Origin: Patescibacteria group bacterium
GTDB taxonomy: Bacteria; Patescibacteriota; Patescibacteriia; Buchananbacterales; UBA6539
DNA length: 64,000 nt
Direction of reading: 5' to 3'
Assembly: GCA_028688055.1 (NCBI GenBank)
Contig: JAQTYZ010000002.1
Location: 68,256-132,255 of the forward strand
The first letter of the stretch is position 1. Each line of letters starts with the position of its first letter. Position numbers and translations under genes: made by a program. Of this stretch, positions 38,512-52,744 are shown one piece after another. The notes under the pieces were generated by a model, which searched no databases, was not told the DNA's origin, and saw only the letters and a list, made by a program, of their open reading frames with translations.

Positions 38512-41586
<3,075 letters not shown>

Positions 41587-41697
41587 AACTGGGGAAAATA
41601 GCTAATGGCATTTGGCAAATCGCTAATAGCCAATTAGTAATACTCTGAATTAAAATCATTAGAACCTGGATGCCTGGCATTTGGTCGGGCATCTCGT

Positions 41698-41802
41698 TTT
41701 GGTGGTTTTAGCGGTAGGGTCACACCTGTTCCCATCCCGAACACAGCAGTTAAGCCTACCAGCGCCGATGATACTCTTTAGGGGAAAGTAGGTCGCCGCC
41801 AA
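41698..41802 (+). rRNA. rrf: 5S ribosomal RNA
   Basis: TTGGTGG...GTCACACCTGTTCCCATCCCGAACACAGCAGTTAAGC...AGCGCCGATG...AGTAGGTCGCCGCCAA. Confidence 0.8.
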
Positions 41803-41812
41803 TTTATCATCA

Positions 41813-41842
41813 AGTCCCGCCTGATCGCGGGACTTTTTGTTT
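41813..41842 (+). terminator. Intrinsic terminator of the rRNA unit
   Basis: AGTCCCGCCTGATCGCGGGACTTTTTGTTT. Confidence 0.7.
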
Positions 41843-41867
41843 ATCATTTTTTTGTTATACTGTTGGT

Positions 41868-42602
41868 ATGAATATTATTGTTGCCAAAAATTACGATGAT
41901 TTATCCGCCCATGCCGCGGCCATCGTTGCTGACCAAATTATTAAAAAACCAAACTCGGTTTTAGGGTTGGCTACTGGCGCGACGCAGCTTGGGTTATATC
42001 AAAAGCTCGTTGAACTTTATCACCAGGGGAGTCTTAGCTTTAGTCAGGTAACAACTTTTAATTTGGATGAGTATTTTGGGCTAGCTAATGATGATTCACA
42101 AAGTTATCATTATTTTATGTTTGAAAATTTTTTTAAACACCTTGATATAAAAAAAGAAAATATTTTTATTCCGGCTGGTTCAATTTCAATGACCGAAGTT
42201 GGACCGTATGGTCAAAAATATGAAGCGGCCATTAAGATTAAGGGTGATCTTGATTTACAAATTTTAGGTATTGGTGAAAATGGTCACATCGGTTTTAATG
42301 AACCGGGTTCTGATTTTAATTCAGTGACTCGTTTGGTTAGTTTGAGTGATAACACTATTAAGGCTAATGCTCGCTTTTTCTCTGCCCCCGAAGCAGTTCC
42401 CCGACAAGCCATCACGATGGGTTTGGCAACTATTATGTCAGCCAGAAAAATTATATTGTTAGCTTCGGGTAAAAGTAAAGCCGCGGCCGTCGCCCAGGCT
42501 TTAAGCGGGGAGGTCAGTGAGGCAGTCCCGGCTTCCGTTTTGCAGCGACACCAAAATCTTACTATTATTTTAGACACCGAGGCAGCGGTAATGGTTAAAT
42601 AA
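41868..42602 (+). CDS. nagB: Glucosamine-6-phosphate deaminase
   Basis: LGLATGAT...FNLDEY...ILGIGENGHIGFNEPGS. Confidence 0.75.
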   Translation: MNIIVAKNYDDLSAHAAAIVADQIIKKPNSVLGLATGATQLGLYQKLVELYHQGSLSFSQVTTFNLDEYFGLANDDSQSYHYFMFENFFKHLDIKKENIFIPAGSISMTEVGPYGQKYEAAIKIKGDLDLQILGIGENGHIGFNEPGSDFNSVTRLVSLSDNTIKANARFFSAPEAVPRQAITMGLATIMSARKIILLASGKSKAAAVAQALSGEVSEAVPASVLQRHQNLTIILDTEAAVMVK

Positions 42603-42753
42603 TTTAAAGGTTAAAATTAAGCCGCCAGTGAGCGGTTTTTAGATTTGACTAATTTTAGCTAATAAACTAAGATATTTTATTAATTTAATGAAGTGTGAAA
42701 GATATTGACTTATTAATATGTATGATATAGTATGATAATATGACAACTTTAGT

Positions 42754-42879
42754 TGTCATCCCGAGCTTATTTGCATACCTAATAGTATGCAAATTAGTAG
42801 GCAGACTCGTCAATTAGATAATAATTTAAGAGATTCTGAAACCGCCGCCAGAGCGGGGTAAATAAATTCAGAATGACAA
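42754..42879. repeat. Largest copy (126 bp) of the TTGTCAT...ATGACAA palindromic element family
   Basis: TTGTCATCCCGAGC + hairpin ATTTGCATACC..GGTATGCAAAT + hairpin ATTCTGAA..TTCAGAAT + ATGACAA. Preceded by a facing half-site ATGACAAC. Confidence 0.6.
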
Positions 42880-42885
42880 TTACCA

Positions 42886-43719
42886 ATGGATCGATCACGA
42901 CTGACAATTACTTTAGCTAAAGAAGTCCTCAAGCAACTTGATGGCTTAATTGATGGTGCGCGAATTAGAAATCGTTCGCACGCGATTGAGTATGTCTTGT
43001 TAAAACATTTTGCGCCTAAAATCCGCAAAGCTTTGATTTTGGCCGGCGGTCAGGGATTGAAGATGAGGCCATTTACGTATGAAATGCCTAAGGCGATGAT
43101 TCCGTTAAATGGTCGTCCGGTTTTAGAGCACATCATTGAAAATTTCCGTCGCTATGAGGTGAGAGAATTGGTTATCTCAATTGGCCATCAAGGCAATAAG
43201 ATTAAACAGTATTTTGGTGATGGTTCAAAATTTGGTGTTAAGATTACTTACCTGGAGCAAGGTTTGGCTGAAACGGGAACGGCGGCGCCGATTTTACAGG
43301 CCAAAAAAATAGTCGGTGATAATCCATTTTTTGTGTATTATGCTGATGTGTTAGCCGCCGTGGATCTGGATGATATGGTTGATTTTCATACCTCAAATAA
43401 TGGTTTAGTCACTATGGCTTTAACTTCCGTTAATCGGTCGTCAAATTGGGGTGTCGTTCGCTTGCAGGGCAATCGCGTTTATTCATTTTTGGAAAAACCG
43501 GATCAGCGAAAGAATTTATCAAATATTATTAACGCTGGTTTTTATATTTTTAACCCTAAGATTTTTGATTATCTTAAGCCTGAGACTAAGCGGCTGGAAA
43601 AAGATATTTTTCCAAAATTAGTGGAGCAGCGCAAAATGTTTGGTTATATGTTTGCCGGTCAGTGGTTTGACGTTGGCAATCCGGAGATATATGAGCAGGC
43701 GATTAAGGAATGGAAGTAA
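42886..43719 (+). CDS. Fusion protein: N-terminal ribbon-helix-helix (CopG-like) domain plus a sugar-phosphate nucleotidyltransferase (RmlA/GlmU-N-like)
   Basis: N-terminus MDRSRLTITLAKEVLKQLDGLIDGARIRNRSHAIEYVL is RHH-like. Then KALILAGGQGLKMRPFTYEMPKAMIPLNGRPVLEH, the NTP-transferase G-loop. Confidence 0.55.
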   Translation: MDRSRLTITLAKEVLKQLDGLIDGARIRNRSHAIEYVLLKHFAPKIRKALILAGGQGLKMRPFTYEMPKAMIPLNGRPVLEHIIENFRRYEVRELVISIGHQGNKIKQYFGDGSKFGVKITYLEQGLAETGTAAPILQAKKIVGDNPFFVYYADVLAAVDLDDMVDFHTSNNGLVTMALTSVNRSSNWGVVRLQGNRVYSFLEKPDQRKNLSNIINAGFYIFNPKIFDYLKPETKRLEKDIFPKLVEQRKMFGYMFAGQWFDVGNPEIYEQAIKEWK

Positions 43720-43826
43720 AATTTATTTTTGAAAGTTGAGGTAAATCGTTAAATTTTTCTTAACGATTTACCTCGTCCTTTGAATGTTGAATCATCCACA
43801 ACCCATAACCCATGGAGGGATTCATA

Positions 43827-44792
43827 ATGAGTGGTTTAGAGCGCTTGAAGCTAACGGGCCGTGTTGAATTGTTGCCATCAGGTTTTTACTCTTCGGTCGT
43901 TCTCGTTGTTGAGAACGGTCACAAAAAGGTGGTGAAGCTTATTAGGAAGCCTGAGTTGAACGAGCAAGCCATTGCTCAGCAGCTTGGTGACGACATCGTC
44001 GCGTACGGCGCAGAATTGTTGCGACGGGGAGTACGTTCACCGCAAGTGAAAGTTCGGTTATTGGGCGACGTCGGCGAAGGCTGGGATGTTGTGGTCGAAG
44101 CCCCATTTCAGGGCACCGATGTGGCACATTTGTTGCTCGAGGCTGATGAGTCGGATTCGGTGCGGCTGACGCGAGGCATGCTGGGCATGATTTCAGCTTT
44201 ATTTGATTATCCGTTGGAAAGTGGCTTTGAGCTACAAATAGGCATTGATCCTAAGCCGGATAACTTCACTGTTTCCGAAACTGGAGAGATGCATTATATT
44301 GACTTGATGCCACCGCGGTATCGACGCGATGGCGTGCCAATTGTTGAATTCCCAGAGCCAACAACGGATATTGGGAAAAAGGTGGCATATTATCGTTACT
44401 ACGATATGCGCGGCATACTGACCGTTCTTAGATCCCAGCTTTGTCGCAATCGTTTTGACCTGAGGCCGTTGTTTCGTCGCCTCATCGCGGAATTTGCCGC
44501 GCAGTACCCTGGTCTTGGCCGTCATATGGGACTCTCCGTCGGGGAAGTCTTTGTGGATGCAAACCTAAGCGGTCGACTTGCTATTATCGAGGCGTTAGCC
44601 GGTGATGATATGTATGCCATGCGTGACATTGTAACGCAATTGGCGTTTGAGAACCCGCTTTATCGGCACCCGTGTATCGACAAGGTATTCCACCTGTCAC
44701 ACTTCTATCAAGAGGCTCCGTCCCCGGAGAATGTTTGTCGGGTTAAGAAAATCCTGCGAGCAATGACTCGTAATGAGTCGGTGGAAGTTTAG
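43827..44792 (+). CDS. Protein-kinase-like / aminoglycoside-phosphotransferase-like fold protein (atypical kinase), GC-rich
   Basis: Catalytic-loop-like IGIDPKPDNF and HYIDLMPP (Mg-binding-like). GGAGGG lies 7 nt before the ATG at 43827. Confidence 0.4.
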   Translation: MSGLERLKLTGRVELLPSGFYSSVVLVVENGHKKVVKLIRKPELNEQAIAQQLGDDIVAYGAELLRRGVRSPQVKVRLLGDVGEGWDVVVEAPFQGTDVAHLLLEADESDSVRLTRGMLGMISALFDYPLESGFELQIGIDPKPDNFTVSETGEMHYIDLMPPRYRRDGVPIVEFPEPTTDIGKKVAYYRYYDMRGILTVLRSQLCRNRFDLRPLFRRLIAEFAAQYPGLGRHMGLSVGEVFVDANLSGRLAIIEALAGDDMYAMRDIVTQLAFENPLYRHPCIDKVFHLSHFYQEAPSPENVCRVKKILRAMTRNESVEV

Positions 44793-44804
44793 TCGGCGAA
44801 CTTG

Positions 44805-45692
44805 TTAAGGGCGCCGATTTTTTTTTATTGTTTTAATAAATGTTTTAAAATTATGTTCGTTTAAACCGCCATCACCCATAGCGATTTCTGGATGATGATG
44901 TTCACCGTGCCAGTCAGAACCACCCGTTATCAACCAATGATGTTTTACTGCTAACTCCTTACAACGATTGCGCATTTCCAGATTATTTTTTGGGGAATAG
45001 ACTTCAATGGCATCAATTTTACTTTTACTAAGCTCACTTATAAGTAATTTAAATTTTTTTTCGCCAATTGTCTGACCGAAACGTTTTACTAATTTTTCTA
45101 AAGTTTCTCCAGGGTGGGCTAGGCTAGCGTAACCATTGGCTTGGTGGATTAATTTAACCGCGGCGCTCGGTAACATTGCCCAATCGCCGTAGGGCACTTG
45201 TGCTACGCCGCCACTATTAAAATACGCGAGGGCTTGTTTTGGCGTTATTTTAAGGCGTTTAGCAATCGTTTTGGCCAAGTCGTATTTAGTCATTGGCAGC
45301 AAAGAATTTTTAGATTTTTTGATAGCACTTATTTTTAGATTTATAATTTTTGTCGCCGCCAATTTTTCAAGCATCATTTTTGCCCGTTGGTTATAGCCGT
45401 TCACCGTTTCAGTTAAGCCCAATTTTAAAATATGTTCATCAAGATTGAGGCTATACCCTAAAATGTGAACCTCAGTGTCAAAAATTTTTGTGCTAATCTC
45501 GACACCTTGAACGTTTAGTATATTAGCCGCCCGAGCGAGACGTTCTTTAAGTTTTAGGCCATACCAAGTATTATGGTCGGTAATTGATATCGCCCGTAAG
45601 CCATTTTTTTTTGCCAATTTTATAACATCCTTAACGGCGTAATCACCATCGGAAAAGTCAGAGTGGGTTTGCATGTCATATTGATATCTCAT
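44805..45692 (-). CDS. PHP-domain metal-dependent phosphoesterase
   Basis: MQTHSDFSDGDYAVKDVIKLAKKNGLRAISITDHNTWYG... and C-terminal ...GGSDWHGEHHHPEI. Confidence 0.6.
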   Translation of the reverse strand: MRYQYDMQTHSDFSDGDYAVKDVIKLAKKNGLRAISITDHNTWYGLKLKERLARAANILNVQGVEISTKIFDTEVHILGYSLNLDEHILKLGLTETVNGYNQRAKMMLEKLAATKIINLKISAIKKSKNSLLPMTKYDLAKTIAKRLKITPKQALAYFNSGGVAQVPYGDWAMLPSAAVKLIHQANGYASLAHPGETLEKLVKRFGQTIGEKKFKLLISELSKSKIDAIEVYSPKNNLEMRNRCKELAVKHHWLITGGSDWHGEHHHPEIAMGDGGLNEHNFKTFIKTIKKNRRP

Positions 45693-45719
45693 AAGATTAT
45701 TATAATACTTTTTAACTAT

Positions 45720-46496
45720 CTAATCAGTAATCTCAACTATTAATGGAAAGTGATCCGAAGAATGGTTGGTTAATTTATTTTTTATAATTTTAGCGTCCTT
45801 AATTTGTTTGGCCAGTTCGGGCGTAACAAAAGCGTAATCTAGGCGAAGTTTTGTCGCGTGGTCGACATCCGTGCAAATATCGGTTGGAACGGAGTAGTAA
45901 ACAGTTGCCCCATGATGAAATTTTTTTGTAATATCAATCAAGCCGCTTTTTAGGATTTTTTTGATTACTTTTTTTTCAATTGATTGGCTGCCAAATTTTG
46001 TAATATTTTTTTCTTGAAACTTTTTTAGCAATTTTTTGTCATTATAATTATCCTGGGGTGACAGCGAATTGAAGTCACCCAAAATAATTGCCCTTTTCTG
46101 GTGACCTATTTGGTTGATGATTTTTTCAGCTTCGTCGATTCGGATTGTTTCTTTTTTAGGACTGAGATGGACGCCAAAAATTTCAAGCTTATTTTCAAAA
46201 TTTGCTTCGATCACTGAGTGATGAAAACCTTTATTGGTTGAGCTGATTTTTTTAGGTTTGGTTTTTGATAGCAAGGCCAAATTATGTTTTGTGTTTGATT
46301 TAGCTAAAAATTTATATTTGAACGAAGTTTTTTTGGCGAAATCAGCTAAATCTTGTTGCTGCCAACTCCAAGCTTCCAAAATAATGGCAACGTCCGGATT
46401 AATTTCTTTTATCACGCGAGTAATTTTTGGCCACCGACCGCGAGGATTATTTTTAGTTCGGCCGCCATGGTCAATGTTGTATAGCAGTATGCGCAT
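45720..46496 (-). CDS. Endonuclease/exonuclease/phosphatase (EEP) family protein
   Basis: N-terminal MRILLYNIDHGG..., internal ...ILGDFNS... and C-terminal ...SDHFPLIVEI motifs. Confidence 0.55.
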   Translation of the reverse strand: MRILLYNIDHGGRTKNNPRGRWPKITRVIKEINPDVAIILEAWSWQQQDLADFAKKTSFKYKFLAKSNTKHNLALLSKTKPKKISSTNKGFHHSVIEANFENKLEIFGVHLSPKKETIRIDEAEKIINQIGHQKRAIILGDFNSLSPQDNYNDKKLLKKFQEKNITKFGSQSIEKKVIKKILKSGLIDITKKFHHGATVYYSVPTDICTDVDHATKLRLDYAFVTPELAKQIKDAKIIKNKLTNHSSDHFPLIVEITD

Positions 46497-46696
46497 TGAA
46501 GGTAAAAATGATTGTTTTTAGTAGTAGCTTAGTAATTGAATTGTATTTCAATATGAACCATTTGTCAAAGTTTTATATATATTTTTTGACACCTTAAATG
46601 ATGTAAATTGGCTAATTTTAGCCAATTTAATAATTTATACATATATAGTGCAGGAAAAAAATTGACAAACATCGTCTATAGTATATAATATCTTTA

Positions 46697-47443
46697 TTGA
46701 ACAGTATGATTGAAACTATTCTCCAAAAATTTGGTTTAAGTGATAAAGAGATTAAGATTTATATGACTTCAATCAAAATCGGGCCAGCTTCGGTTCGTCG
46801 GCTAGCGGGCGCTGCCGGGGTTAATCGAGGCACGGCTTACGATATCTTGAAATCTTTAGTGGAGTCCGGTTTAATCAGTTATTATCACAAAGAAAAGAAT
46901 CAATATTTTATCGCCGAAGATCCGTCAAAACTTAAGGACGTTTTGGAATACAAACAGCAACAGCTGGAAAAAATGAAAGGGGAAGTTGACGATATCATTC
47001 CTCAGTTGCGCTCAATTTATGATAATGCTAACGCCAAGCCGGTGGTCAAGTTTTATGAAGGGCTGACTGGTATTAAAACAATTTTGGCTGATGTGATTGA
47101 TTCGGTTTCACGCCAGGATAAAAAAGTTTATTATGCTTTTTCTTCCGCCGACATTAAAAATTATTTATACGCGGCTTACCCATCGTATTCCGATGACCGC
47201 ATTGAGGCGGGAGTCAATGTCAAAGTCATTTCACTCGGACCCGGTGGCGAGATGCGCGGATTAGATGAGCGCAAGTGGTTGATTAAAGATAACAGTGCGC
47301 CAACTTATACCTTAATTTATTCAGGCAAAGTGGCGATGATTTCAGTCGACAAGGATGATAAGCCGATCGGCGTTTTAATTGAAGATAAAAATATTTATGA
47401 TACGCAAAAAATAACTTTTGAACTCATTTGGGAAAAACTTTAA
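46697..47443 (+). CDS. TrmB-family (sugar-responsive) HTH transcriptional regulator
   Basis: GLSDKEIKIYMTSIKIGPASVRRLAGAAGVNRGTAYDILKSLVESGLI wHTH domain plus a C-terminal sensor-like domain. Confidence 0.55.
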   Translation: MNSMIETILQKFGLSDKEIKIYMTSIKIGPASVRRLAGAAGVNRGTAYDILKSLVESGLISYYHKEKNQYFIAEDPSKLKDVLEYKQQQLEKMKGEVDDIIPQLRSIYDNANAKPVVKFYEGLTGIKTILADVIDSVSRQDKKVYYAFSSADIKNYLYAAYPSYSDDRIEAGVNVKVISLGPGGEMRGLDERKWLIKDNSAPTYTLIYSGKVAMISVDKDDKPIGVLIEDKNIYDTQKITFELIWEKL

Positions 47444-47444
47444 T

Positions 47445-48194
47445 ATGGATAAAATTCAAATAATAATTTTAGCCGCCGGACACGGCCGACGAATGAATAA
47501 TGAAAGCTTGCCCAAGGCGCTGACACCTTTAAAGGGTAAGCCGTTAATCATTTGGTTAGCAGAAGCGATTAAAAAATCCGGCGTTTGTGAACGACCAGTC
47601 ATTGTCGTTGGACAAAAATCGGAAATGGTTAAAGCAACTTTAGGCCAAGACTATACGTATGTGACGCAATCAGAACAACTAGGAACCGGTCACGCCGTAA
47701 TGGTGGCGCGCGGCGAACTCGAAGGCAAAGCGGAAAACATTATGGTGCTTTATGGCGATCATCCGTTGGTTAGCAGTGAAACAATCAAAAAATTAACCCA
47801 AGCCCACCTTGACTCTGGTAACGTTCTAACGATGGCAACGGTAAAAATCGAAGACTTTAATGACTGGCGGAAAAGTTTTAGTGATTTTGGCCGCATCACC
47901 CGCGCTAGCGACGGTACCATCTCGGCTATTATTGAGGCCAAAGATGCTAGTGTTGAGCAAAAAAATATTTTAGAAGTTAACCCAAGCTATTTTGTTTTCC
48001 GGGCCGATTGGCTGTGGCAGAATTTGGCAAAGCTTAAAAGTGATAATGTTCAGCATGAATATTACCTGACTGATTTGCCAAAAATTGCAGTGAGTGAAAA
48101 TGAAAAAATTACTTCAGTGGAAATCGATCCGCGCGAGGCGTTGGGTGTAAATACCGTTGAGCAGTTAGATTTAGTTGATAACAATTTAAAATAG
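47445..48194 (+). CDS. GlmU-N-terminal-like sugar-1-phosphate uridylyl/nucleotidyltransferase, no acetyltransferase domain (native-composition copy)
   Basis: IIILAAGHGRRM...QLGTGHAV...LYGDHPL. Start at the ATG at 47445 (MDKIQII). Confidence 0.6.
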   Translation: MDKIQIIILAAGHGRRMNNESLPKALTPLKGKPLIIWLAEAIKKSGVCERPVIVVGQKSEMVKATLGQDYTYVTQSEQLGTGHAVMVARGELEGKAENIMVLYGDHPLVSSETIKKLTQAHLDSGNVLTMATVKIEDFNDWRKSFSDFGRITRASDGTISAIIEAKDASVEQKNILEVNPSYFVFRADWLWQNLAKLKSDNVQHEYYLTDLPKIAVSENEKITSVEIDPREALGVNTVEQLDLVDNNLK

Positions 48195-48310
48195 GATGAT
48201 TATATTTACTTAGAGTTTTTAGGTCTCGAATGGCTGATGATAGAGGAATGAGTCAATTGATTTATTCCCGTGTCATTATTTGAAGATCAGACTTATTGGG
48301 AGGAATGGTG

Positions 48311-49060
48311 ATGGCGATTGAACCTTTAAGGGTAGTTATTTTGGCTGGTGGGCTTGGCAAAAGAATGGGCCTATCGTTGCCAAAGGCTTTGGTACCGCTG
48401 AATAATCGGCCGATGATCAGTTATCTGCTTGATGCCGTTAAGGCCTCGGGTGTTTGTGGCCGACCACTCGTGGTTTCCGGTCAGAAGGCGGAACTTCTTG
48501 AGAGCGCCTATGGCGATCAGTGTGACTTTGTAAGACAGCATGAACAGTTAGGAACTGGCCATGCTGTAGGTTGCACTGAAGCGATGTTGCGAAATGTCGC
48601 AGAGAGCATCATGGTTTTATACTGCGATATGCCAACCTTGAAACCCGAAACGATTGCTCGTTTATTCAACGCACATCAATCAGCTTGTGCCGACCTGACT
48701 ATGGCAACGGTAATGGCCCCTGATTACTTGGACTGGCGTTCGGCCTTGTTTAATTACGGCAGGGTCATTCGTGATAAACACGGAGATGTCTGTCGTATCG
48801 TCGAAATCAAAGACGCCGACATGGAACAGCAAGCGTTGCAAGAGGTTAATCCAAGCTACTTTGTCTTTCGAGCTGAGTGGCTATGGAATAATATTGGTCA
48901 GGTGCAAAACGACAATGCACAAGGGGAGTACTACCTAACCGACTTACTTGGCCTGGCGTTTAGTCAGGGTCGCAAAATTGTTTCGGTTCCAATTGAACCA
49001 GTAGAAGCGGTCGGGGCAAATAGCATTGATGAGTTTAGGCAACTTGCCAAACTTCTTTAA
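48311..49060 (+). CDS. GlmU-N-terminal-like nucleotidyltransferase, a GC-rich paralog of 47445-48194
   Basis: VVILAGGLGKRM...QLGTGHAV...LYCDMP. About 45% identical to its neighbour but with clearly higher GC. GGGAGG lies before the ATG at 48311. Confidence 0.6.
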   Translation: MAIEPLRVVILAGGLGKRMGLSLPKALVPLNNRPMISYLLDAVKASGVCGRPLVVSGQKAELLESAYGDQCDFVRQHEQLGTGHAVGCTEAMLRNVAESIMVLYCDMPTLKPETIARLFNAHQSACADLTMATVMAPDYLDWRSALFNYGRVIRDKHGDVCRIVEIKDADMEQQALQEVNPSYFVFRAEWLWNNIGQVQNDNAQGEYYLTDLLGLAFSQGRKIVSVPIEPVEAVGANSIDEFRQLAKLL

Positions 49061-49097
49061 CAGGGGCGACTCTGTCGTCCCTGCTTTATTTTTTTAG

Positions 49098-49718
49098 ATG
49101 ATCATACTAGATTTAGACAATACCATATTTAATACGCCATTACTTAAAGAGGATATTTATTATTCATTTAAGGTTTTTGGCATTTCTGATGAATTATTTT
49201 TTACTACGTTAAAAGCAGCTTATGATGTTGATCAAGAGAACAAAAATTGTTATAGCCCAAAAAGACACGCAAAATTATTATTTGATACTAAGGAAAAGGC
49301 AGAACGAGCTGTTGCCAAACTATTTCAAGTCATGGAAGAACGTGGGCATACCTATTTGTATTCTGATGTCAAAGAAACTTTAGTAGAAAATAAAAAAAAT
49401 GGGGTTAAACTAATTTTATTAACTCAAGGCGATGAGTTTTTTCAAAAGAAAAAGATTGAAGTTAGTGGCATTAGCGATTTATTTGATGACATCATTATTG
49501 TTCAGGACGGGAAAAGTGCGATGGCTGAATTATTACCCCTCGAAGATATTAGGTTGGCTGTTAATGATCGACACGATGAGCTAGAGAAAATGCATAAACT
49601 GTTTCCGCGTGCCCGATGCGTTGAGATTCAACGTTCGGGGACGCGGGCAACGGTTTCGAAACCGTGGCCTGTGGTCAGCACGATTGCTGACGCAATATTG
49701 TACTTCAACAAACAGTAG
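49098..49718 (+). CDS. HAD-superfamily hydrolase (phosphatase/phosphomutase-like)
   Basis: Motif I MIILDLDNTIF. Rossmannoid length. Confidence 0.5.
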   Translation: MIILDLDNTIFNTPLLKEDIYYSFKVFGISDELFFTTLKAAYDVDQENKNCYSPKRHAKLLFDTKEKAERAVAKLFQVMEERGHTYLYSDVKETLVENKKNGVKLILLTQGDEFFQKKKIEVSGISDLFDDIIIVQDGKSAMAELLPLEDIRLAVNDRHDELEKMHKLFPRARCVEIQRSGTRATVSKPWPVVSTIADAILYFNKQ

Positions 49719-49746
49719 CAAGGCAAACTTGCTGGGAGGGAAATAG

Positions 49747-50673
49747 ATGCGTGATGTAGTGGTTGGGTTCTCCTTAAACCCTGAGATCTACTGGACAGGA
49801 ATTCCAGTTCAGTCCGGGATGTTGGCCGGCCAGAAGGTGTCAGCCCAAGCCAGCTGGAGTGTTTCTGGCACGTCGTTTGATGTCGCTTGGGCGTTGCTCC
49901 AAAGTGGCTGCACGCCGTTGCTGCTTGGTGCAGTTGGCGCTGATGACCCGCTTAACCGGGTTATCGAACAACGACTCGGTGAGATCAATATGCCTCACCA
50001 GTTACTCGGCGTGCGCGAGCATACCTGTCTGGCGTCCATTGAACCAGAACATGAACGGCACTTGTCGTTCAAGTCACCGGTCGTCACGGTTGATACCGCG
50101 GCCATCAAGTTGGTCATCGAACAGGAGCAACCGAAATTTCGGGTGGTGACTGGTTTGATGCCTGATGAAAACGAGATTGTGCTAGCCCAGACTTTGCTGG
50201 CGCCCAATGGTGGTATTCGCATCCTCAATCCGCGGCAGGCGTTGACTGGCAATCGGCCGGTATTCAAGGAGATTGTTCAATCGGCCGACTGGCTCTTCAT
50301 GAATCGGTTTGAAGCTGCCGAATTCCTCGAGGTTGGATCGGGTGATCTGCAGTTGTCAATGCTTGAACAGTTCCTTGAGTTGGGACCAAGTCTCGTGGTC
50401 GTCACGATGGATGGCGACGGATCGTTCGCTCTCAGTCGTGAAGGCTTGACAGTGTCAATGCCCTCGCATATTCATGGGCCTAAGGTTGATGAGAAGGGAG
50501 CAGGTGACTGTCTACTCGGTTTCTTCATTGCAGCCACCCTGAAAGGGTGCTCCCCTGAAGATGCGCTTCGCATGGCGACTGTTGCCGCCGGAATTAAGGT
50601 GACCCGTATGGGTACCACCAACATTCCGTCCATGGCCGAAGTCATGGAAGTTGTGAGTCATTATGAGGTGTAA
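49747..50673 (+). CDS. PfkB-family carbohydrate kinase (ribokinase-like), GC-rich
   Basis: C-terminal DEKGAGDCLLGFFIAA (PfkB signature 2). Confidence 0.6.
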   Translation: MRDVVVGFSLNPEIYWTGIPVQSGMLAGQKVSAQASWSVSGTSFDVAWALLQSGCTPLLLGAVGADDPLNRVIEQRLGEINMPHQLLGVREHTCLASIEPEHERHLSFKSPVVTVDTAAIKLVIEQEQPKFRVVTGLMPDENEIVLAQTLLAPNGGIRILNPRQALTGNRPVFKEIVQSADWLFMNRFEAAEFLEVGSGDLQLSMLEQFLELGPSLVVVTMDGDGSFALSREGLTVSMPSHIHGPKVDEKGAGDCLLGFFIAATLKGCSPEDALRMATVAAGIKVTRMGTTNIPSMAEVMEVVSHYEV

Positions 50674-50734
50674 GGCTACGGTCTTGCCCTCTTTTTTTGT
50701 CCGAAATTGAGTAAAGTGTTAAAATACTTTAACT

Positions 50735-52018
50735 ATGCGAGTAATTGCCGATTTACACATCCATTCAAAATTTTCCCGCGCTTGTTCCAAGGACTTAGAT
50801 TTGGAACATAATGATCTTTGGGCGCGAAAAAAGGGGATTGATATTGTCGGGACCGGTGATTTTACCCATCCGGGCTGGATCAAGGAGCTGCAGGAAAAGT
50901 TAATTGAAGAAAAACCGGGGCTATATAAATTGAAAGGCAACCACCTTCGCCAAGGCTCCGGCGGTCAGGCTGCCGGTAAAGTGCTTTTTATGTTAACGAC
51001 TGAATTAAGTTGTATTTATTCTCAGGGCGGCAAGGTTCGACGAATTCATTTGTGCGTTTTTGTTCCGGATTTTGTCACCGTCGAAAAAATTAATACGGCC
51101 TTGGAAAATAAAGGTGTAAATTTAAAATCAGATGGCCGGCCGATTATGGGTTTGCACGCTGATGAACTGACCAAAATAATTATTGATGCTAATCCTGAAT
51201 CTTTGGTTATTCCAGCACACGCTTGGACACCCTGGTTTTCTGTTTTTGGTTCTAACTCAGGCTTTGATACTTTGGAAGAGTGTTTTGGCGCTATGACGCC
51301 ATATATTTATGCCATTGAAACCGGGTTATCATCTGATCCGCCAATGAATTGGCGACTCTCAGCCCTGGATCAGATCACTCTCATTTCAAATTCTGATGCC
51401 CATTCATCGCCCAACTTAGGACGGGAAGCGAATGTTTTTGAAATTGCCGAAAGCAAATTAAGTTATCGTGAAATACGGCGCATTATAAAAAGTAAAGATC
51501 AGAAAAGTTTTTTGTCTACCATTGAATTTTTTCCCGAAGAGGGCAAATATCATTTTGATGGTCATCGCGCCTGTAACGTCAGGCTGTCGCCCGCCGAAAG
51601 TAAAAAACATAAAAATATCTGCCCGGTCTGTAAAAAACCGCTCACGATTGGGGTGATGAATCGGGTTGAGATTTTAGCTGATCGAGCGGAAGGCTATCAA
51701 AATAATTTTATTCCGTTCAAGAGTATTGTTCCGTTGCCGGAAATTATGGCTGAAGTTTTTGAAGTGGGGAAGGGAAGTAAAAAGGTAATGGCTGAATATG
51801 AAAATATGCTAAAAAAAGGGGGTAATGAGTTTAAAATTTTGCTTGATTTACCCATTTCTGAACTGGAAAAGTTTGCCCTGCCGCCAGTCGTTATGGCGAT
51901 CAAAAATATTCGTGGTGGGCTGGTTAAAGCTGTTGCTGGCTATGATGGTGTTTATGGTGTCATTAGTGCCCTTGGCAGCGATCGACGCTGCCAAAGTCAT
52001 CAGCCGACGTTACTATAA
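50735..52018 (+). CDS. Endonuclease Q-like PHP-domain nuclease (TIGR00375-like) with a Zn-ribbon
   Basis: MRVIADLHIHSKFSRACSKD...GIDIVGTGDFTHPGW, a later ...CPVCKK... motif (CxxC half of the Zn ribbon), about 427 aa. Confidence 0.45.
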   Translation: MRVIADLHIHSKFSRACSKDLDLEHNDLWARKKGIDIVGTGDFTHPGWIKELQEKLIEEKPGLYKLKGNHLRQGSGGQAAGKVLFMLTTELSCIYSQGGKVRRIHLCVFVPDFVTVEKINTALENKGVNLKSDGRPIMGLHADELTKIIIDANPESLVIPAHAWTPWFSVFGSNSGFDTLEECFGAMTPYIYAIETGLSSDPPMNWRLSALDQITLISNSDAHSSPNLGREANVFEIAESKLSYREIRRIIKSKDQKSFLSTIEFFPEEGKYHFDGHRACNVRLSPAESKKHKNICPVCKKPLTIGVMNRVEILADRAEGYQNNFIPFKSIVPLPEIMAEVFEVGKGSKKVMAEYENMLKKGGNEFKILLDLPISELEKFALPPVVMAIKNIRGGLVKAVAGYDGVYGVISALGSDRRCQSHQPTLL

Positions 52019-52039
52019 AAAAATTTTATTAAAATAAAA

Positions 52040-52066
52040 ACCCCTGTGTTGCAGGGATTTTTATTT
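52040..52066. terminator. Bidirectional intrinsic terminator
   Basis: AAAAACCCCTGTGTTGCAGGGATTTTTATTT. Confidence 0.65.
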
Positions 52067-52080
52067 ATGAAATCTATAGA

Positions 52081-52161
52081 CTATCTCTTTTTTTTCTTAG
52101 CTGCCTTTTTCTTAGGAGCTTTTTTTGCTACTTTCTTTTTTGCTACTTTCTTTTTTGCCAT
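52081..52161 (-). CDS. Very small Lys/Ala-rich basic peptide (26 aa, MAKKKVAKKKVAKKAPKKKAAKKKKR)
   Basis: Reverse-strand ORF with a GGGGGTGAT ribosome-binding site 7 nt upstream. It ends at the terminator. On the opposite strand it overlaps the implausible poly-Phe ORF 52046-52372. Confidence 0.3.
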   Translation of the reverse strand: MAKKKVAKKKVAKKAPKKKAAKKKKR

Positions 52162-52390
52162 TTGGTATCACCCCCTTCCAATTGTATTGTTTACAAAATT
52201 TTTTTTGTTATTTTATAAACTTTTTATTTTCTATAACAATTTATTTAATTATAAAACTTTTTTTGACAAACAACAATATTTATTTTATAAAACTGTGGAT
52301 AACTTTAAAAAATATTTTATGAAGACGACTTTGATTTTTATTTTTTTCAGCAAGGATTTATGCCCTAATTAGACTTGAAGCTATTATCCG

Positions 52391-52744
52391 TTAATCCGAG
52401 TTGGCTAGCTGGTCTTCCAGCACCTTAATTTCTTCCTCTAATTTTTTTATTGTTGTTTCATAATTCTCTACATTACCGCCATAGCCAATGGCCGATCTCT
52501 CATGCTGAGCCATACCCAAATCAGATTTTGCTTTGGACAGTTCATTCCTTTTTTTATCAAGTATTTGTTGAAGATTAAATTGAAGATTTGTCGTAACATC
52601 CACTGTTGGTTTATCAACATTTTGTTCTTGCGTATTGGCTGGATTTTGATTATTGTCCGCCAGGGGACCATTAATGTTTTTATTTTGGTCACTCAATCGT
52701 TCGGCTGTTTTGCCAAAGGCAAAACAGGCCACAACTACGACCAA
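52391..52744 (-). CDS. Coiled-coil protein, probably N-terminally membrane-anchored, hypothetical
   Basis: The first start is TTG. The upstream in-frame hydrophobic codons have no start codon. C-terminal heptad pattern ...KKLEEEIKVLEDQL. Confidence 0.35.
   Translation of the reverse strand: MVVVVACFAFGKTAERLSDQNKNINGPLADNNQNPANTQEQNVDKPTVDVTTNLQFNLQQILDKKRNELSKAKSDLGMAQHERSAIGYGGNVENYETTIKKLEEEIKVLEDQLANSD

Follow-up and report, generated by a model that had tools for sequence, protein, structure and literature searches.

A hexosamine and nucleotide-sugar locus of a Buchananbacteria-like Patescibacterium, possibly in a salvage configuration

Patescibacteria are believed to depend on other microbes, and how they are supplied with cell-wall precursors has largely been inferred from missing genes. 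A ten-gene cluster in one such genome poses the question for a single precursor, UDP-N-acetylglucosamine (UDP-GlcNAc): which enzymes could deliver its immediate substrate, N-acetylglucosamine 1-phosphate (GlcNAc-1-P), where GlmS is not found and GlmU-type uridylyltransferases are kept? The cluster lies in a 64,000-nt window (contig C2, positions 68256-132255) of a 22-contig assembly of 1.10 Mb with a guanine-plus-cytosine (GC) content of 41.1%. It comprises nagB, a nucleotidylyltransferase gene (RHH-NT), a kinase-fold gene (KIN), two phosphoesterase genes (PHP and EEP), the regulator gene trmB, two genes for the uridylyltransferase half of GlmU (glmUN1 and glmUN2), a HAD phosphatase gene and a PfkB kinase gene (Table 1). 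The original prediction, made from the letters alone, had seen in this cluster a possible salvage route to a UDP-amino sugar; that idea is supported by genome content and synteny, though not by evidence on the enzymes. We give about even credence to the view that this is a hexosamine and nucleotide-sugar locus in a "salvage" rather than a "de novo" configuration.

Gene identities were assigned from Pfam and NCBIfam profile scores against curated cut-offs, by which each of the ten genes was confirmed, largely with the identity first given. One description needed amending. PHP and EEP had been called convergent; PHP is indeed convergent, with KIN and across a 12-nt gap, whereas PHP and EEP run in the same direction on the minus strand and EEP is divergent from trmB. 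For synteny, gene order was compared across the orthologous region of 20 relatives. Gene content was searched in 41 genomes, 19 of them from the same family, and PfkB in a class-level sample of 401 genomes; the searchable set holds 31 species genomes of this order. Counts entered into Fisher tests are distinct lineages or loci, uncorrected for shared ancestry.

The conserved frame and its variable slots

Across the 20 relatives the surroundings of the cluster resolved into a conserved frame with variable slots. The frame consists of the 23S and 5S rRNA genes, nagB in some genomes, RHH-NT, a first slot, trmB, a second slot, glmUN1, a third slot and an EndoQ-like PHP-type gene, followed by tRNA and ribosomal genes. 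In the relative G010 the second slot holds genes for a 611-aa GlmS (838 bits) and an alt-GlmU of ~405 aa (336 bits to TIGR03991), and glmS stands between trmB and glmUN1 in 11 of the 15 comparable loci, usually with alt-GlmU next. Here this slot is empty: 1 nt separates the trmB stop codon from the ATG of glmUN1. The third slot, behind glmUN1, is empty in many relatives and is occupied by HAD and PfkB both here and in G004. This relative (96% complete) shares the state of the present genome, with nagB, a KIN-like gene, EEP, trmB, glmUN1, HAD and PfkB, and no glmS; its one hexapeptide protein is stand-alone, 230 aa long and encoded outside the locus.

The contents of the first slot also vary by genome, and include KIN with PHP, a KIN-like gene with EEP, GAPDH, apgM and others. 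In G014 and G003 (loci L032 and L034, respectively), genes for threonine dehydrogenase, glycine C-acetyltransferase (kbl) and an IMPase-family protein lie beside glmS between trmB and glmUN1 in both genomes; these insertions indicate that the slots gather unrelated metabolic genes.

The cluster had been said to contain no glmS, glmM or full-length glmU. This is true of the cluster, and genome-wide searches likewise found neither glmS nor a full-length glmU, and only one GlmM-like mutase, on contig C6. The GlmS model (TIGR01135) gave a best match of 17 bits, on a SIS-domain open reading frame (ORF), anywhere in the assembly, and matched in 14 of 14 controls; the alt-GlmU model (TIGR03991) had no match in the assembly and matched in 13 of 14 controls. 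No hexapeptide-repeat protein was found anywhere in the assembly by a search that matched in control genomes, and all matches to GlmU models genome-wide reach the N-terminal part only. Neither nagA nor a ROK kinase was found genome-wide by searches that matched in control genomes. Within the family, glmS scores above cut-off in 12 of 19 genomes and alt-GlmU in 11 of 19. GlmS and a recognisable glucosamine-1-phosphate (GlcN-1-P) acetyltransferase are gone exactly where most relatives hold them.

What the genome keeps is the end of the pathway. GlmUN1 scores 190-203 bits against GlmU models, and the two copies together span 175-203 bits, covering model positions 2-237 only. Neither reaches the cut-off for bifunctional GlmU (175-190 bits against 367 for TIGR01173), and both lack the C-terminal left-handed beta-helix acetyltransferase domain. 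Each is ~250 aa long, they are 49% identical to each other, and both retain the N-terminal uridylyltransferase motifs, namely the LxxGxGxRM...PK loop and the sugar- and metal-binding positions; in GlmUN2, 65 columns are kept out of the 73 whose conservation reaches 85% among 120 family members. Orthologs of glmUN1 occur in 19 of 19 same-family genomes, and GlmUN1 groups with protein P0038 at 80% identity. A search for stand-alone GlmU-N proteins returned 6242 hits at E<1e-20, so that this form is the norm in Patescibacteria and no oddity. Together with a full-length murA-like gene (300 bits), the conserved GlmU-type uridylyltransferases indicate that the genome needs UDP-GlcNAc.

The single phosphohexomutase on contig C6 scores 393 bits against PMM/PGM (cut-off 618), 353 against archaeal GlmM (TIGR03990, 439) and 197-199 against bacterial GlmM (TIGR01455, 447.6). 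Falling below every GlmM cut-off, it is a PMM/PGM/archaeal-GlmM-like member of the superfamily. A single ortholog is also present in the glmS-bearing relatives, where it is the sole GlmM candidate. The present locus is best compared with the canonical GlmS/GlmM/GlmU route and with its split Patescibacteria form (glmS, alt-GlmU and stand-alone GlmU-N), with which it shares the GlmU-type last step, a mutase of the phosphohexomutase superfamily and an orthologous locus. It differs in that GlmS and the acetyltransferase half are missing, the uridylyltransferase is doubled, and a kinase and a HAD protein stand behind it. One locus in two states, glmS with alt-GlmU or kinase with HAD, provides a concrete candidate for the salvage enzymes.

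The HAD-PfkB pair and the supply of GlcNAc-1-P

The order trmB-glmUN-HAD-PfkB, continued by the EndoQ-like gene, was found in five lineages (L053, which is G004, and L054 to L057). The glmUN-HAD and HAD-PfkB gaps measure 0-25 nt in L054-L057 and ~60 nt in L053. None of these five lineages has glmS in the locus, against 11 of the 15 loci that lack the pair (Fisher p=0.008, uncorrected for phylogeny). In the 401-genome class sample, strong PfkB orthologs were confined to G004, G184 (100% complete) and G072 (93%), and the latter two are also without glmS. In distant families PfkB stays beside trmB, HAD or both, without glmUN, so that the robust unit is trmB-PfkB-HAD. What chiefly speaks for an action of the pair on amino sugars is that orthologs of this TrmB head either glmS-alt-GlmU-glmUN or glmUN-HAD-PfkB. 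What is new here is this alternative state of one orthologous locus, together with an uncharacterised trmB-(glmUN)-HAD-PfkB unit.

PfkB belongs to a small clade specific to Patescibacteria, with 20 homologs at E<1e-10 among 5.8 billion proteins and a best identity of 57%. Its catalytic set is intact: the GAGD motif (G251-A-G-D254) and the NxxE residues N186 and E189 are invariant in the 20 clade members. It scores below the cut-offs of the named subfamilies (ribokinase 53.5 bits against 299.7, hexose kinase 48 against 216, rfaE_dom_I 34.8 against 345). An AlphaFold2 model with a predicted local distance difference test (pLDDT) of 93 superposes on human ribokinase with Z 31.4 over 291 residues at a root-mean-square deviation of 2.8. 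The genome encodes two further, more canonical PfkB paralogs, and the protein of the locus is the most divergent of the three.

For the HAD protein, the available similarities favor a phosphatase over a mutase, with the NANP/HDHD4 (CTE7; N-acylneuraminate-9-phosphatase) subgroup nearest. A profile of six orthologs matched HDHD4 among solved structures at 1.2e-7 (HDHD4/NANP range 1e-7 to 2e-6) and a putative beta-phosphoglucomutase at 0.048. Motif I reads DLDNT (residues 5-9); its second Asp and the motif IV Asp vary among the six orthologs, whereas invariant residues are numerous in the cap. In connection with the idea that HAD acts as the pyrophosphatase of the cell, the genome was found to contain a short ORF with a weak Ppa-like match (29 bits).

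The best reading of these features is a salvage or entry route for an N-acetylhexosamine under TrmB control. The cell would import N-acetylglucosamine (GlcNAc) or another N-acetylhexosamine related to it, supplied by a host or by the environment, and the PfkB kinase would phosphorylate this sugar. GlcNAc-1-P could then be reached in one of two ways: PfkB might act as a 6-kinase followed by the C6 mutase, or PfkB might be followed by the NANP-like HAD via a bisphosphate, as in the ADP-heptose pathway. GlmUN1, GlmUN2 or both would make UDP-GlcNAc for MurA. NagB would link glucosamine 6-phosphate (GlcN-6-P) and fructose 6-phosphate, in either direction, and TrmB would control the unit, presumably through the palindrome before its own promoter. 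If this is true, it names a new PfkB-type family of hexosamine kinases and a TrmB-type regulator, and shows which metabolite is derived from the host.

Hexosamine salvage is established elsewhere, by NagK, AGM1 and UAP1 in eukaryotes, by NahK with GlmU (plus a pyrophosphatase in one-pot syntheses), and by AnmK, MupP, AmgK and MurU in Pseudomonas. The logic there is the same, in that GlmS is bypassed by a kinase acting on the sugar, by a mutase or HAD phosphatase where one is needed (MupP belongs to the HAD proteins), and by a sugar-1-phosphate uridylyltransferase. The kinase here, however, has the PfkB/ribokinase fold, not the ROK/ASKHA fold of NagK or the APH fold of NahK and AmgK. Nor do the other genes of the cluster reproduce the AmgK/MurU pair, since the APH-like KIN matches no APH/AmgK model and RHH-NT reaches only 121 bits against the MurU profile (cut-off 250). 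In the literature we found nothing on the salvage of UDP-GlcNAc within the Candidate Phyla Radiation, nor on the metabolism of Buchananbacteria.

The second of the two ways to GlcNAc-1-P has a precedent in the ADP/GDP-heptose pathway (HldE/HldA, GmhB, HldC/HddC), where the same three superfamilies are adjacent and a sugar 1-phosphate is reached via a bisphosphate without a mutase. The present locus differs from it in having no GmhA isomerase, a HAD protein that is NANP-like and not of GmhB type, and a nucleotidyltransferase of GlmU type. It is conceivable, though decidedly unlikely, that glmUN-HAD-PfkB forms an undescribed mutase-independent route to UDP-GlcNAc, in which PfkB would act as an anomeric kinase on hexosamine 6-phosphate (or free GlcNAc), HAD would remove the 6-phosphate (or hydrolyse pyrophosphate) and GlmU-N would uridylylate the product. 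Such a route would be the amino-sugar counterpart of HldE/GmhB in host-dependent Patescibacteria without GlmS.

Several observations count against an N-acetylhexosamine salvage route. The PfkB model resembles ribokinases (Z 31), nucleoside kinases, HldA (29.0) and LacC/Pfk-2 (27.6-27.9) alike, with an overall range of Z 25-31, and by sequence profile its nearest matches are a nucleoside kinase and ribokinases. glmS is present in three genomes whose PfkB-like matches are weak, and G016 holds a PfkB ortholog along with both glmS and alt-GlmU. Conversely, glmS was not found in about half of the 41 genomes, many of which lack HAD-PfkB (G006, G007, G011, G019 and most other families); those genomes cope otherwise, so that the lack of glmS in all four PfkB-bearing genomes is only suggestive. 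Within the locus, a strong terminator stands between glmUN2 and HAD. The locus, in one of whose variable slots the pair lies, also gathers unrelated genes (GAPDH, apgM, tdh/kbl), so that the adjacency of the pair to glmUN may reflect an insertion hotspot and not a shared pathway. In the absence of NagA, it is not obvious what NagB would do in a route of GlcNAc salvage alone, and we identified no transporter and no GlcNAc-releasing hydrolase.

The alternative that best withstands these data is catabolic. The nagB product, a Pfk-2-like PfkB and a HAD acting as an opposing sugar phosphatase would feed amino sugars or other hexoses into glycolysis under TrmB, with NagB converting GlcN-6-P to fructose 6-phosphate and PfkB converting the latter to fructose 1,6-bisphosphate; the adjacency to glmUN would be an insertion slot, and the precursors of UDP-GlcNAc would come from elsewhere. 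Archaeal regulators of the TrmB family control glycolysis and gluconeogenesis, which fits this view, as do the PfkB-HAD-trmB units without glmUN in distant families, the likeness of the PfkB model to LacC/Pfk-2, and the glycolytic genes in related slots: GAPDH, apgM, PFK (L054, L142) and PGI (L049). The absence of a PfkA-type phosphofructokinase, based on tblastn with two Patescibacteria PFK queries, is also in its favor. We nevertheless consider this explanation rather unlikely, because the pair is missing from most relatives with the same glycolytic needs, the two more canonical PfkB paralogs are at hand in the genome, the absence of glmS from all five pair loci is left unexplained, and no route to GlcNAc-1-P is left although the uridylyltransferase and MurA are kept. 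In the same set of tblastn searches, with queries from related loci, no homolog of a cofactor-independent phosphoglycerate mutase or of guanylate kinase was found genome-wide; GAPDH (contig C16), PGI (C2:54649-55638) and IMPase (contig C9) are present.

NagB could also work in reverse. Because the reaction is reversible, NagB might replace GlmS in an ammonium-rich landfill, and the source run is a landfill metagenome. A non-hexapeptide acetyltransferase would then act on GlcN-6-P or GlcN-1-P, followed by the mutase and GlmUN as in the eukaryotic route, with no need for PfkB and HAD. The distribution of nagB lends this some weight: it is accessory in the order, present in 4 of the 41 genomes and each time just after the 5S rRNA gene, and three of the four (G000, G004 and G006) are without glmS. 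G006 has alt-GlmU all the same, and there NagB is the sole visible source of GlcN-6-P. The fourth, G010, carries nagB together with glmS. For the acetyltransferase, the genome offers two GNATs, of which the SpeG/PseH-like one on contig C17, with similarity to PseH (50 bits) and to aminoglycoside acetyltransferases and a score of 44 bits against PF00583, is a candidate; no GNA1-type model matches it and its gene stands apart from the locus, and there is no hexapeptide acetyltransferase at all. As the recurrent HAD-PfkB pair is also left unexplained, we regard a NagB-driven de novo route as quite improbable. A nagB gene near a transcription factor and a HAD-superfamily phosphatase (NagD) is likewise found in the E. 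coli nag regulon (nagE-nagBACD), from which the present locus differs in that nagA and a phosphotransferase system were not found, the regulator is of TrmB type and not a ROK-type NagC, and the HAD belongs to another subfamily.

Base composition of KIN, glmUN2 and PfkB

Three genes of the cluster had been described as distinctly GC-richer than their neighbors, and the measurements agree: KIN has a GC fraction of 0.505, glmUN2 of 0.481 and PfkB of 0.539, against 0.355-0.42 in neighboring genes and 0.411 in the genome. From this the original prediction had derived a stepwise horizontal acquisition, with a xenolog beside the native GlmU-like gene. Besides composition, such a history could claim that the synonymous residuals of KIN and PfkB (z 1.7 and 2.3) fall in the top 4-6% of the genome, that KIN, PfkB and nagB are patchily distributed, and that in the free tree GlmUN2 joins sequences labeled Pacebacteria, weakly (Shimodaira-Hasegawa-like approximate likelihood ratio test, 92).

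The deviation is less exceptional than it looks in isolation. Among 925 ORFs, those at least as GC-rich make up 6% for KIN, 9% for glmUN2 and 3% for PfkB, spread over all large contigs, and finding three such genes among ten has a binomial P of 0.054. When all ORFs of 120 aa or more are counted, about 9-10% reach a GC fraction of 0.47, singly or in short runs on all large contigs; two of these GC-rich families were checked, and their orthologs in other genomes show the same offset. The fraction expected from amino-acid composition is 0.461 for KIN, 0.469 for glmUN2 and 0.481 for PfkB (genome mean 0.413), so that about half of the excess, and most of it for glmUN2, comes from the encoded proteins.

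Local offsets recur in every orthologous locus, over backgrounds of 0.32-0.58: +0.06 to +0.13 for PfkB, +0.04 to +0.09 for KIN and -0.05 to -0.13 for HAD. A GC-rich gene in a low-GC genome therefore need not be a recent import. Orthologs of the GC-rich genes are 39-57% identical, and the best database identities are 48-57%, from which neither a donor nor a recent transfer is visible. Between loci, PfkB (39-54%) and HAD (33-48%) show lower, not higher, identities than the frame genes. No boundary repeats of cassette type turned up next to the GC-rich genes when 41600-52400 was searched for repeats.

The xenolog reading of glmUN2 fares no better. Its codon usage is ordinary (synonymous z=0.5), and a tree constrained to make GlmUN2 the sister of GlmUN1 was not rejected (approximately unbiased test, p=0.57) and was 4.6 log-likelihood units better. 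GlmUN2 is fast-evolving (branch length 1.02, best database identity 54-55%), and no ortholog of it was found in the relatives; a fast-diverged local duplicate would explain it at least as well as an import. Two relatives carry a second GlmU-N-like gene behind glmUN1 (L028:4463-5254 in G017 and L029:9243-10037 in G008); these are very divergent (branch length 3.2, 34-35% identity) and are not orthologs of glmUN2. We conclude that the GC-rich genes are long-standing accessory genes of intrinsically GC-richer composition, and that recent or stepwise import, including that of a glmUN2 xenolog, is very unlikely.

Contigs from a second assembler, built from the source run, span 41800-47490 and 47471-51558 at an even depth of ~10, so that the GC-rich genes are not a chimeric join. 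That glmS and the acetyltransferase simply fell into the unassembled ~2% of a 22-contig assembly (estimated 97.7% complete, 4.15% contamination) is exceedingly improbable, because the syntenic position is intact and empty on the 201-kb contig that carries the trmB-glmUN1 junction, the second assembler agrees, and G004, G184 and G072 combine the same absence with a PfkB ortholog.

Candidate regulatory sites and accessory genes

TrmB is recognisable by its winged helix. Its remaining ~175 residues (72-248) have no Pfam match, and NCBIfam TrmB/TrmBL1 models reach the N-terminal ~95-135 residues only, at 21-27 bits. The perfect palindrome upstream of trmB (Table 1) has related AGCTAAATTTAGCT palindromes 48-103 nt upstream of trmB in ~9 related loci. 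Further copies of the family, with the core GCTAATTTTAGC, lie elsewhere in the genome at C13:249053, C14:2931, C16:44006 and C13:265119; the first is ~250 nt upstream of a GC-rich 463-aa ORF (C13:249299-250690). Judged by this shared core, the scattered palindromes may form a small TrmB-type regulon.

Table 1. Features of the cluster and its borders, in window coordinates unless a contig is named.
Feature	Position	Strand	Description and profile evidence
23S rRNA	38512-41583		Bacterial; with 5S, immediately upstream of the cluster
5S rRNA	41698-41804		Bacterial
nagB	41868-42602	+	Glucosamine-6-phosphate deaminase; TIGR00502 296 bits (cut-off 236.9), residues 1-243
Palindrome TTGACTAATTTTAGCTAA	42645-42662		Second copy of the trmB-upstream palindrome; candidate operator
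RHH-NT	42886-43719	+	Sugar-1-phosphate nucleotidylyltransferase with ~47-aa N-terminal RHH-like extension; frame gene; PF00483 159 bits
Hairpin	43738-43774		Perfect, 15 bp, 7-nt loop; between RHH-NT and KIN; no clear T-run after it
KIN	43827-44792	+	Protein-kinase-like (APH/WaaP-type) small-molecule kinase, DUF6206-related; DUF6206 29.9 bits, just below cut-off
PHP	44805-45692	-	PHP-family phosphoesterase (TrpH/nucleoside-bisphosphate-phosphatase-like); PF02811; matches below cut-off to NF041577 (117 bits) and RNase RNM (103 bits)
EEP	45720-46496	-	EEP-family (ExoIII-like) phosphoesterase/nuclease; PF03372 49.8 bits; xth 57 bits (cut-off 99)
Promoter-like site	46568-46540	-	On the EEP gene side
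Palindrome TTGGCTAATTTTAGCCAA	46609-46626		Perfect; ~86 nt upstream of trmB; candidate TrmB operator
Promoter	46662-46689	+	Sigma-70-type, before trmB; consensus TTGACA-16-TATAAT, 12/12
trmB	46697-47443	+	TrmB-type winged-helix regulator, 248 aa; frame gene; PF01978 47.2 bits (cut-off 25.6), residues 9-71
glmUN1	47445-48194 (longest ORF from 47418)	+	Stand-alone GlmU-type GlcNAc-1-P uridylyltransferase; frame gene
glmUN2	48311-49060	+	Second GlmU-N copy
Hairpin	49061-49083	+	Intrinsic-terminator-like; 10 bp, 7 GC, T-run; directly after glmUN2, 14 nt before HAD start
HAD	49098-49718	+	C1-capped, phosphatase-type; PF00702 34.8 bits (cut-off 26.4), PF13419, TIGR02253 42.5 bits
PfkB	49747-50673	+	PfkB/ribokinase-fold sugar kinase; PF00294 84.6 bits
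EndoQ-like	50735-52018	+	PHP-type frame gene; orthologs with PF27218 MJ0043_C; right border of the variable slot
Phosphohexomutase	contig C6		Four PGM_PMM domains

RHH-NT is 50-81% identical across all related loci. Among solved structures, a UDP-glucose pyrophosphorylase (8x7s, 2e-40) comes closest to it together with GDP-mannose pyrophosphorylases, and MurU matches at only 5e-20. The N-terminal extension alone (residues 1-50) scores 19.3 bits against RHH_1 (cut-off 20.5, E 0.0011). Upstream of the RHH-NT start and after a promoter-like site, positions 42741-42800 contain two more palindromes, ATGACAACTTTAGTTGTCAT and TTTGCATAC...GTATGCAAA, which could be operators for the RHH extension.

KIN belongs to a rare family (502 representatives among 1.84 billion proteins) on which, as DUF6206, we found no paper. 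Its catalytic set comprises K42, D146-P-K-P-D-N151 and D164; across 95 sequences N151 and D164 never vary, while K42 and D146 are each present in 90% or more. Snf1 and Nek2 kinases are matched by the profile at E~7e-4, and no APH model (PF01636, the family of AmgK and NahK) matched. Among solved structures, the AlphaFold2 model (pLDDT 96) matched amicoumacin kinase (Z 12.9), APH(3')-Ia, Bud32, WaaP and LicA best; its likeness to the small-molecule kinases among them lies at Z 10-13 (11-13 for APH and WaaP kinases) and was also seen in ESM Atlas matches. Foldseek against the PDB returned p38/MAP kinases only, at a template-modeling score of ~0.35.

In several loci the gene convergent with KIN encodes a phosphoesterase, whose family (PHP, IMPase or EEP, which are unrelated to one another) differs from case to case. 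The KIN-PHP pair also occurs in G017, G035 and one Logan contig, and EEP is convergent with KIN-type genes in G004, G016 and L140/141. DUF6206-like kinases are also found fused to guanylate kinase, beside an RHH-NT-like transferase (L142:2016-3734); another fusion, to a PP2C/SpoIIE phosphatase, has an EEP gene convergent with it (L140:6001-7773). As these fusions and pairings do not point to amino sugars, we treated KIN-PHP(-EEP) as a separate accessory module. EEP is probably a nuclease unrelated to sugars, and the EndoQ-like gene, probably a nuclease like EEP, would likewise have no part in sugar metabolism. We also considered KIN as a replacement NAD kinase, with PHP, IMPase and EEP as phosphatases of NADP/pAp type. 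This idea was dropped, since the NAD kinase domain is missing with or without KIN and so does not discriminate: the C-terminal domain (PF20143) was found in none of the 41 genomes and in 12 of 14 control genomes, implying that NADP synthesis is lacking or that an unrecognised kinase carries it out.

A groundwater run from another study (X2) yielded low-depth fragments 95-99.7% identical to nagB, EEP, trmB, glmUN1 and the EndoQ-like gene. KIN, glmUN2, HAD and PfkB are not covered in that run, nor does any contig join across them, which is not evidence for their absence in that strain. Identity is highest in the EEP region (45744-46583, 99.5-99.7%) and 95-96% for nagB and glmUN1, indicating that a close relative lives in groundwater.

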